Origin: Gammaproteobacteria bacterium
GTDB lineage: Bacteria > Pseudomonadota > Gammaproteobacteria > Steroidobacterales > Foliamicaceae
Assembly (NCBI GenBank): GCA_028285945.1
Contig: JAPYNE010000033.1
Span: 27,964 to 91,963, forward strand
DNA: 64,000 bases
Direction: 5' to 3'
Positions within the stretch are counted from its first letter, which is position 1; each line of letters opens with the position of its first letter. This document shows, piece by piece, positions 37,662 to 37,767 of this stretch. The position numbers were made by a program, and so were the translations under genes. The notes under the pieces are model-generated. The model had not been told where the DNA came from, ran no database searches, and saw nothing but the letters and a program-made list of their open reading frames with translations.

Positions 37662-37767
37662 GCCCGGAGCTTGCCCGCGCCGCGCGGGAGACGCATGAAC
37701 CCATCCATGGGGCTCGGCGGCGGCTTCTGCCGCCGACGCTCCCGCGCGGCGCGGGCAAGCTCCGGGC
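37662..37767. repeat. Single hairpin repeat element (archetype, reverse orientation), probable terminator of the receptor gene
   Basis: Perfect 29-nt arms gcccggagcttgcccgcgccgcgcgggag / ctcccgcgcggcgcgggcaagctccgggc flank the core acgcatgaacccatccatggggctcggcggcggcttctgccgccgacg. Confidence 0.9.

Follow-up and report, generated by a model that had tools for sequence, protein, structure and literature searches.

How can a dispersed DNA element change the sequence of a long hairpin stem from copy to copy and still keep that stem almost perfectly paired? The question is raised by positions 37662-37767 of a 64,000-nt stretch of contig JAPYNE010000033.1 (assembly GCA_028285945.1, from a Gammaproteobacteria bacterium of the Foliamicaceae), which we analysed over its full length and refer to as the window. 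An earlier note on this DNA had described there a multi-copy hairpin with a conserved core and copy-specific, self-complementary arms, and had offered three explanations for it: a structured RNA or terminator under strong selection on its stem, palindrome homogenisation, or a small element inserting into the loops of pre-existing palindromic terminators. Our analysis favours, with a probability of roughly 60%, a family of clade-specific, non-autonomous interspersed palindromic repeats, in which the arms are restored at the DNA level, mismatched copies are selected out and the transcribed hairpin has a role.

The focal copy (37660-37769, minus strand, 118.8 bits) is preceded at 14 nt by the stop codon of a gene for a TonB-dependent receptor and followed at 20 nt by the open reading frame (ORF) of a major facilitator superfamily (MFS) transporter. 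It reads GCCCGGAGCTTGCCCGCGCCGCGCGGGAG, then 48 nt, then CTCCCGCGCGGCGCGGGCAAGCTCCGGGC, with the conserved core at ~37686-37743 on the minus strand; its arms, 37662-37690 and 37739-37767, are paired at 29 of 29 positions, exactly as first described. A covariance model built from 22 copies identified 11 full copies in the window, together with half-copies and one remnant, and the right-half core motif GGRTGNRTTCATGCGTCTCC had 10 matches there against 0.12 expected. All ten loci listed in the earlier note carry the element, and all window copies are intergenic and situated between ordinary chromosomal genes, in agreement with that note; its list had missed one full copy, on the minus strand at 7944-8067.

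Beyond the window, a 715-kb sample of metagenome-assembled genomes (MAGs) of related sponge-type Gammaproteobacteria yielded ~130 distinct copies with the covariance model. An exact 27-mer of the core had over 83 occurrences in the genome collection, all of them in Gammaproteobacteria MAGs including Candidatus Foliamicus, with many matches coming from one complete 2.48-Mb chromosome; judging by isolate names, the MAGs that carry it look like sponge-microbiome bins. The window, which is not itself among these records, shares ~90% DNA identity over long syntenic stretches with CAR4_bin_12 and OZ243929.1. Several short-read contigs of CAR4_bin_12 (L014, L027, L040, L042, L075 and L084/L015) start or stop inside a copy, indicating that the repeat fragments assemblies and that copy numbers from draft MAGs are underestimates.

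The family corresponds to no entry in the collections that we searched. A blastn comparison of the focal copy with plasmid and phage collections gave no match, and the comparison with Rfam that the earlier note had called for returned no family for the hairpin at the gathering thresholds of Rfam 15, the sole pass in the window being a tRNA. This 88-nt tRNA (29490-29577) lies ~1.2 kb downstream of the transposable unit at 27957-28296 described below. A permissive Rfam scan of 24700-28400 gave only sub-threshold matches to microRNA precursors, which reflect generic long hairpins, and our literature search found no description of the hairpin family or of repeats in Candidatus Foliamicus.

To define the anatomy of the element, we used 97 non-redundant copies. 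The unit is ~106 nt long and consists of a 29-30-bp stem, with 24-25 copy-specific pairs followed by an invariant GGGAG/CTCCC, capped by a conserved tip of ~48 nt that forms a three-way junction with two small covarying hairpins. The arms reach 25-26 nt beyond GGAG/CTCC, end in GCC...GGC and are pyrimidine-rich on the 5′ side. In folding, a single long stem closed a multiloop from which two small hairpins project; the z-scores were -11 to -14, whether the copies were folded as RNA or DNA and on either strand. The stems of the first tip hairpin covary (CGGCGGC/GCCGCCG, CTGGGGCA/TGCCCCAG, CGGCGACA/TGTCGCCG and GGCA/TGCC) around a loop of AGGA, GGA or GGGA, which bears out the inner covariation reported previously. 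The second tip hairpin covaries as well, being CCCA-TGGA-TGGG or TACA-KGGA-TGTA, and CACA-GGGA-TGTG in variant cores. The most constant part of the element is the right core half, AAGCCCCATGGATGGGTTCATGCGTCTCCC. Outside the arms, a linker, GGCGGGATCGAAGCGCC or its complement, stands beside many hairpins, for example at ~2975-3010 in L095 and L097 and on right flanks in the window such as 25029-25045, and it is left alone where the hairpin has been deleted; it may be a target, a component of the unit or a small palindrome in its own right. A small candidate ORF in the reverse core (GGGAGACGCATGAAC...) was rejected, as the TACA-type variant runs into a stop after five codons.

Despite the divergence of the arms, which is 37.7% between copies versus 10.1% in the core, their complementarity is nearly complete. 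Only 28 mismatches were present in 2549 arm pairs, and 98.4-98.9% of arm positions are paired. An ungapped alignment of the outer stem showed changes on both sides at 24 of 29 pairs, with 98.7% of the cells paired and G.U in just two cells, whereas shuffled and slid controls reached only 44-76% pairing; the alignment from the model search was excluded from the pair counts because it contains reverse-strand matches of the palindromes. When copies were compared pairwise, compensated double differences numbered 44471 versus 2743 one-sided ones. Among the residual mismatches, G.T and A.C are equally frequent (11 each), indicating that wobble pairs are not favoured: arm pairing is strictly Watson-Crick, with no wobble excess. 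All perfect inverted repeats of at least 27 nt in the window are members of the family and end in GGGAG/CTCCC.

The same compensation can be followed at single loci, given that several window loci have orthologous copies in two or three genomes. The focal copy has orthologues at the related loci L085 and L084, and the window sequence GCCGCGCG/CGCGCGGC corresponds to GCCTCGCG/CGCGAGGC in L085, a compensated transversion from T:A to G:C. At the 63561 locus, arm positions 5-6 are TG/CA, TT/AA and GG/CC in three genomes around an identical core. Over the comparable orthologous pairs, nine arm changes were compensated versus four uncompensated, and the right core half showed one change in ~217 compared positions. 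Four-fold degenerate sites of the adjacent genes differ by 0.11-0.21, while orthologous hairpins differ at 3/106 and 4/106 positions, which gives pooled values of 0.033 for the hairpins versus 0.177 for the four-fold sites (p=1.8e-8). The rate of change in orthologous hairpins is thus about one fifth of that at four-fold sites. This difference shows that purifying selection acts on the hairpin in place, and it makes a structural function likely.

Copies occupy 31 convergent, 51 co-directional and 7 divergent gaps (convergent versus divergent, p=0.00012), at a median distance of ~60 nt from the upstream stop codon and in both orientations relative to transcription. Such a location suggests a stable transcript hairpin of the kind formed by repetitive extragenic palindromic (REP) sequences.

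Among the three explanations first offered, palindrome homogenisation is the best supported, by the exclusively Watson-Crick pairing, by the 9-to-4 ratio of compensated to uncompensated changes and by occasional flips of the core, which is inverted relative to its flanking linkers in 3 of the 97 copies. We propose that one arm would template the other, through template switching during replication or arm-to-arm conversion in the quasi-palindrome, and that the same template-switch process would occasionally flip the spacer. Selection would remove mismatched copies, and the tip would remain constant as the functional or recognised part. Transcribed copies would fold into RNA hairpins of great stability, placed between cistrons or at the 3′ ends of genes, and might serve there in 3′-end protection, processing or insulation. 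A perfect duplex of 30 bp would also be a substrate for RNase III. Template switching homogenises the arms of inverted repeats and inverts spacers (PMC8604942), and hairpin stems can be maintained in this way (PMC8794818). As described for quasi-palindromes (PMC8604942, PMC8794818, PMC7202029), the process accounts for perfect arms, multi-base compensation without wobble intermediates and spacer flips. Even so, template switching is reported to favour short spacers, whereas those of the element are ~48 nt, and it is a mutational mechanism rather than an element family, which for the present hairpins we infer.

Could the arms instead be host sequence, namely palindromic terminators that were already there and whose loops received a small core element? 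The strong variation of the arms around a conserved core and the position of copies at gene 3′ ends would agree with this origin. However, arm length is constant at 25-26 nt, the GCC...GGC ends are conserved, composition is shared, and the linkers outside the arms are conserved too, which together indicate that the arms belong to the element. Perfect hairpins of at least 18 bp numbered 133 in the 715 kb; 118 were clear family members and most others had variant cores, leaving one coreless hairpin, an unrelated case. Element-free sites, moreover, keep the linker and the first 7-10 nt of one arm, a deletion scar rather than an empty palindrome. The fixed arm length, the conserved ends and the near absence of coreless hairpins refute the insertion model, which we regard as extremely improbable. 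The hairpins also lack the T-runs of terminators: a T-run follows the hairpin in 0 of 96 copies on one strand and in 2 of 96 on the other, so the element is not a canonical intrinsic terminator, and a terminator scan called none at the focal copy. For the proposed structured RNA or terminator under stem selection, then, the part that holds is selection, seen as purifying selection in situ, while the missing T-run counts against the terminator; both orientations relative to transcription occur.

A more specific form of the RNA explanation is prompted by the tip. RNA bound by CsrA presents GGA in the loops of short hairpins, in an A(N)GGA or CANGGANG context and with at least two sites per molecule, the CsrB repeat being CAGGA(U/A/C)G and the SELEX consensus for CsrA being RUACARGGAUGU (PMC7652899). 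In the element, CA(N)GGANG is found on the core-forward strand twice in 54 of 97 cores and once in the other 43, with a spacing of 20-22 nt and never on the reverse strand. Both tip hairpins carry the motif on the same strand, their stems covary, the tip is conserved at orthologous loci, and the loop variants CAGGATG, ACAGGGATGT and TACAGGGATGTA agree with the CsrB repeat and with the SELEX consensus, so that at the sequence level the loops have the features of CsrA sites. The element might therefore primarily be a functional structured RNA, with two CsrA/Rsm-type GGA loops on a rigid stem, that supplies dispersed predicted CsrA sites as decoys or local regulators, its stem covariation then reflecting selection at the RNA level. 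We consider this unlikely. Of the 51 copies in co-directional gaps, only 18 have GGA on the sense strand (33 are antisense), and G.U is tolerated in the stem no more than A.C, which is unusual for RNA-level selection. The Csr/Rsm families of Rfam gave no match, and csrA itself was not seen by tblastn in 715-787 kb, a sample that is uninformative on this point. The likeness to CsrB/RsmZ therefore resides in the two short hairpins with CA(N)GGANG loops, some of which are identical to CAGGAUG or ACARGGAUGU (PMC7652899); it does not extend to the single small RNA gene of those systems, as opposed to a dispersed element with hundreds of copies, each on a 30-bp stem, nor to orientation, which in the element has no bias towards the GGA strand.

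We return to the preferred reading, in which interspersed palindromic repeats are homogenised at the DNA level, and ask which known repeats they resemble. REP sequences are small palindromes, one end of which bears GTAG or CGTC as an unpaired tag (PMC3733652). Like REPs and bacterial interspersed mosaic elements (BIMEs), the element is a high-copy intergenic palindrome enriched in unidirectional and convergent gaps and rare in divergent ones (PMC3733652); it forms mosaic arrays with conserved linker motifs as BIMEs do, and it is probably transcribed as a stable hairpin. By contrast, the REP unit measures 20-40 bp rather than ~106 nt, the 5′ end of the element is GTAG in 6 of 96 copies and CGTC in none (AAAG, CAAG and GGAG dominate), and the REP plan is reversed, with variable arms around a conserved centre. 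Further likenesses link the element to REP doublets forming hairpins (REPINs) and their REP-associated tyrosine transposases (RAYTs), namely non-autonomous hairpin repeats of ~100 nt, stem compensation, clusters, tandem arrays and long vertical persistence (PMC3116915).

These likenesses raise the alternative that the element spreads like a REPIN, as single-stranded DNA mobilised by a single-copy RAYT/HUH tyrosine transposase that reads the tip hairpins, so that only copies able to form a hairpin transpose. Persistence at orthologous loci, clusters, tandems and common compensatory changes recall REPIN populations (PMC3116915), as the location in unidirectional and convergent gaps recalls REPs (PMC3733652). 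A REPIN, however, consists of two conserved inverted REPs around a less conserved spacer (PMC3116915), and the element has the opposite architecture, a conserved centre with variable ends, and tip hairpins that are not inverted copies of each other. In REPIN systems the cognate RAYT gene is single-copy and mostly has repeats beside it; no RAYT/IS200-like ORF was found near the ~130 copies in 715 kb, a weak test. In addition, the REP tags are rare or missing, and the clear mobility signature is one of terminal inverted repeats (TIRs) and a 4-bp target-site duplication (TSD), which points to a DDE-type mechanism. We judge RAYT-driven spread very unlikely. Integron attC sites, whose structure is conserved and whose sequence varies, have R and L boxes conserved at the base of the stem, extrahelical bases and an association with gene cassettes and an integrase. 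The element does not belong with them: its stems are fully paired without bulges, it lacks RYYYAAC/GTTRRRY boxes and its flanking genes are housekeeping genes.

The mobility signature comes from miniature inverted-repeat transposable elements (MITEs) that carry part of the copies. A composite unit in OZ243929.1 is 290-330 nt long, contains the hairpin as its left internal module and is bounded by the TIRs CCCGCATATTGCACCAA ... TTGGTGCAATATGCGGG. In all, 15 TIR pairs (CCCGCATATTGCACCAA) bound units of 204-454 nt, one of which is 27957-28296 of the window. The TIRs of these carriers are 17-20 nt long, the carriers have no coding capacity, and none of the 15 TIR pairs encloses an ORF, as those of a related autonomous IS encoding the transposase would. 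Matched 4-nt flanks were CTAG/CTAG in five units, with TTAA, CTAA, CTAT and CTGG in others, so the TIR units carry a 4-bp target-site duplication of the CTAG/YTAR type. Target duplications of 4 bp with the sequence YTAR or CTAG are typical of the IS5 group in the ISfinder descriptions. Four of the 15 TIR units have no hairpin, and ~80% of hairpins lack the MITE terminal repeats, indicating that the hairpin is an optional module that also persists alone. Some copies have spread as MITE cargo. The carriers thus resemble MITEs of DDE transposons, including those of the Correia/NEMIS type, in their shared TIRs, matched 4-nt flanks and missing coding capacity, whereas the arms of the hairpin itself are neither conserved nor TIRs recognised by a transposase. 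The earlier view that the element is neither a simple REP nor a MITE with conserved termini accordingly applies to the hairpin and not to those copies that are cargo of a true TIR/TSD MITE. Taken as a whole, the element works much like REPs, BIMEs, REPINs and MITEs, yet fails the defining features of each.

Several observations weigh against our reading. About 80% of copies lack MITE terminal repeats, so that carriage by MITEs does not explain how hairpin-only units spread. No transposase candidate emerged from tblastn, whether with an IS5-like InsH query in 787 kb or with IS200/RAYT queries in 715 kb around the ~130 copies, weak negatives that hold for these samples. Under arm-to-arm conversion alone, the arms should change at the neutral rate; the observed rate is ~4 times lower, so selection is needed besides conversion, and selection alone could also yield compensated changes. 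The estimates of core conservation are biased insofar as several orthologous loci were retrieved via the exact core 27-mer, a bias of which L085/L084 are free. Finally, the RNA-level role of the hairpin is suggested by inference.

Comparison of related genomes revealed gains, deletions, replacements and inversions of copies; many copies also keep the same position in different species. Twelve related genomes lack the 46079 copy at the orthologous locus. Where L091 has a copy downstream of a gene, relatives have behind that gene just the linker and the first 7-10 nt of an arm, stubs that are deletion scars. L017 and L067 represent one locus with different subfamilies despite coding flanks that are 96-97% identical, and L073 and L076 one locus with the unit in opposite orientation. 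For hairpin-only units, the comparison of filled and empty sites yielded deletion scars, inversions and subfamily replacement, and no target duplication was definable. Half-units multiply locally by tandem duplication: the window has ten tandem-repeat arrays, six of which coincide with elements and are made of half-units.

The window copies illustrate these processes. The complete TIR-bounded MITE at 27957-28296 (plus strand) has TIRs at 27957-27973 and 28280-28296 and CTAG on its right flank. It contains a full copy at 28017-28146 (plus strand, arms 29/29 from 28019) and a tandem 98-nt right-half unit reaching 28255, in which the covariance model recognised a half-copy at 28172-28221. The 46079-46279 locus (plus strand) also lies within a MITE-type unit, with the right terminal repeat at 46319-46335, and combines a full copy at 46079-46188 (arms 28/28 from 46082) with a tandem right-half unit, matched by the model as a half-copy at 46202-46257. 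At 8297-8541 (plus strand), two tandem 76-nt left-half units precede a full copy at 8430-8541 with arms paired 30/30 from 8431. These three loci had been listed as single units (28020-28255, 46083-46279 and 8305-8540); the element is indeed present at each, as one full copy plus tandem half-units.

Similarly, at 24849-25030 (plus strand) a left-half unit (24849-24901) is followed by a full copy (24921-25030, arms 29/29 from 24923), in a convergent gap downstream of a class I aldolase gene; retrieval of orthologous loci via the aldolase gave distant taxa only. The adjacent full copy at 25111-25220 (plus strand, 127 bits, arms 29/29 from 25113) is part of a 190-nt tandem duplication that is absent in the orthologous L056. 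The full copy at 8142-8281 (plus strand, 70.5 bits) has arms that are 96% paired and a 30-nt insertion in its right core half. This insertion, a nested module which contains a small hairpin of its own (CTTGACCTTTCAGGTCAAG), splits the right core half in two copies, at 8218-8247 and 621-650. Nearby, the copy overlooked at first, at 7944-8067 (minus strand, 63.2 bits), has a variant core, arms paired 30/30 from 7945 and a right arm duplicated as a 37-nt tandem that extends to 8103.

The locus first described as a hairpin at 564-670 makes a poor hairpin and is a chimera, which occupies 548-740 on the plus strand (model match 548-686, 48.2 bits). In its left arm and core it is similar to the 8142 copy, and in its right arm and flank to the 28017 and 46079 copies; a MITE right terminal repeat stands at 723-739, followed by CTAG. 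Two subfamilies have recombined, with the junction in the core, to give the 548-686 copy. A decayed remnant at 421-511 (18.9 bits, no strand assigned) retains arm-like sequences without an intact core.

On the minus strand, the full copy at 63557-63666 (127.1 bits) has perfect arms, as had been noted, with a length of 29/29 from 63559 in place of 27/27. Its orthologues in L033 and L059 show compensated arm changes. The copy is flanked by a 22-nt tandem array at 63514-63563 (2.3 copies) and a 29-nt array at 63646-63772 (4.4 copies), which consist of linker and outer-arm sequence and differ in length in L033 and L059. The full copy at 52811-52941 (minus strand, 84.5 bits) has one arm mismatch and a longer first tip hairpin, the GCGCCG-ATGTCC-CGGCGC variant. 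Within 50419-55399, this hairpin separates a Ser/Thr protein kinase gene from a co-directional PEGA-domain/FGE-sulfatase-like gene, and the two genes may be functionally linked.

In an uncultured sponge-associated clade, a few percent of the intergenic DNA may consist of this family. It offers a clean natural case in which the stem sequence drifts while the pairing stays perfect and the tip constant, with orthologues across species that allow changes to be timed, and it lets one test an old question, whether compensation in a long stem arises by selection on two independent hits or by a single templated event in DNA. We also entertain a bolder idea, quite unlikely in our estimation, which rests on the loop motifs: the tip might be a dual CsrA/Rsm-binding module, and the transposon-borne hairpin might have distributed high-affinity sites by the hundred across the transcriptome of these sponge symbionts. 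The copies would then constitute a dispersed, evolvable 'CsrA sponge' or wire genes into the Csr regulon, and the 30-bp stem would act as a rigid support or as a point of entry for RNase III, its perfection kept by template switching in DNA. Functional loops of this type would make the hairpin a mobile element that spreads binding sites of a post-transcriptional regulator.

Other repeats in the window lie within genes. A 1366-aa ORF at 13503-17603 (minus strand) encodes Big_2, many leucine-rich repeats and a Peptidase_M66 region, with 72-nt periodic DNA repeats at 15217-16961; we take its product to be a eukaryote-like repeat protein, such as sponge symbionts are reported to have. A 30-nt tandem repeat (48410-48538, 4.2 copies) encodes a Gly/Ser-rich repeat in the ORF at 48233-49171, which has no Pfam match, and at 1155-1270 a 60-nt tandem duplication falls within the stretch that extends a RimM homologue (1084-1899) at its N terminus.

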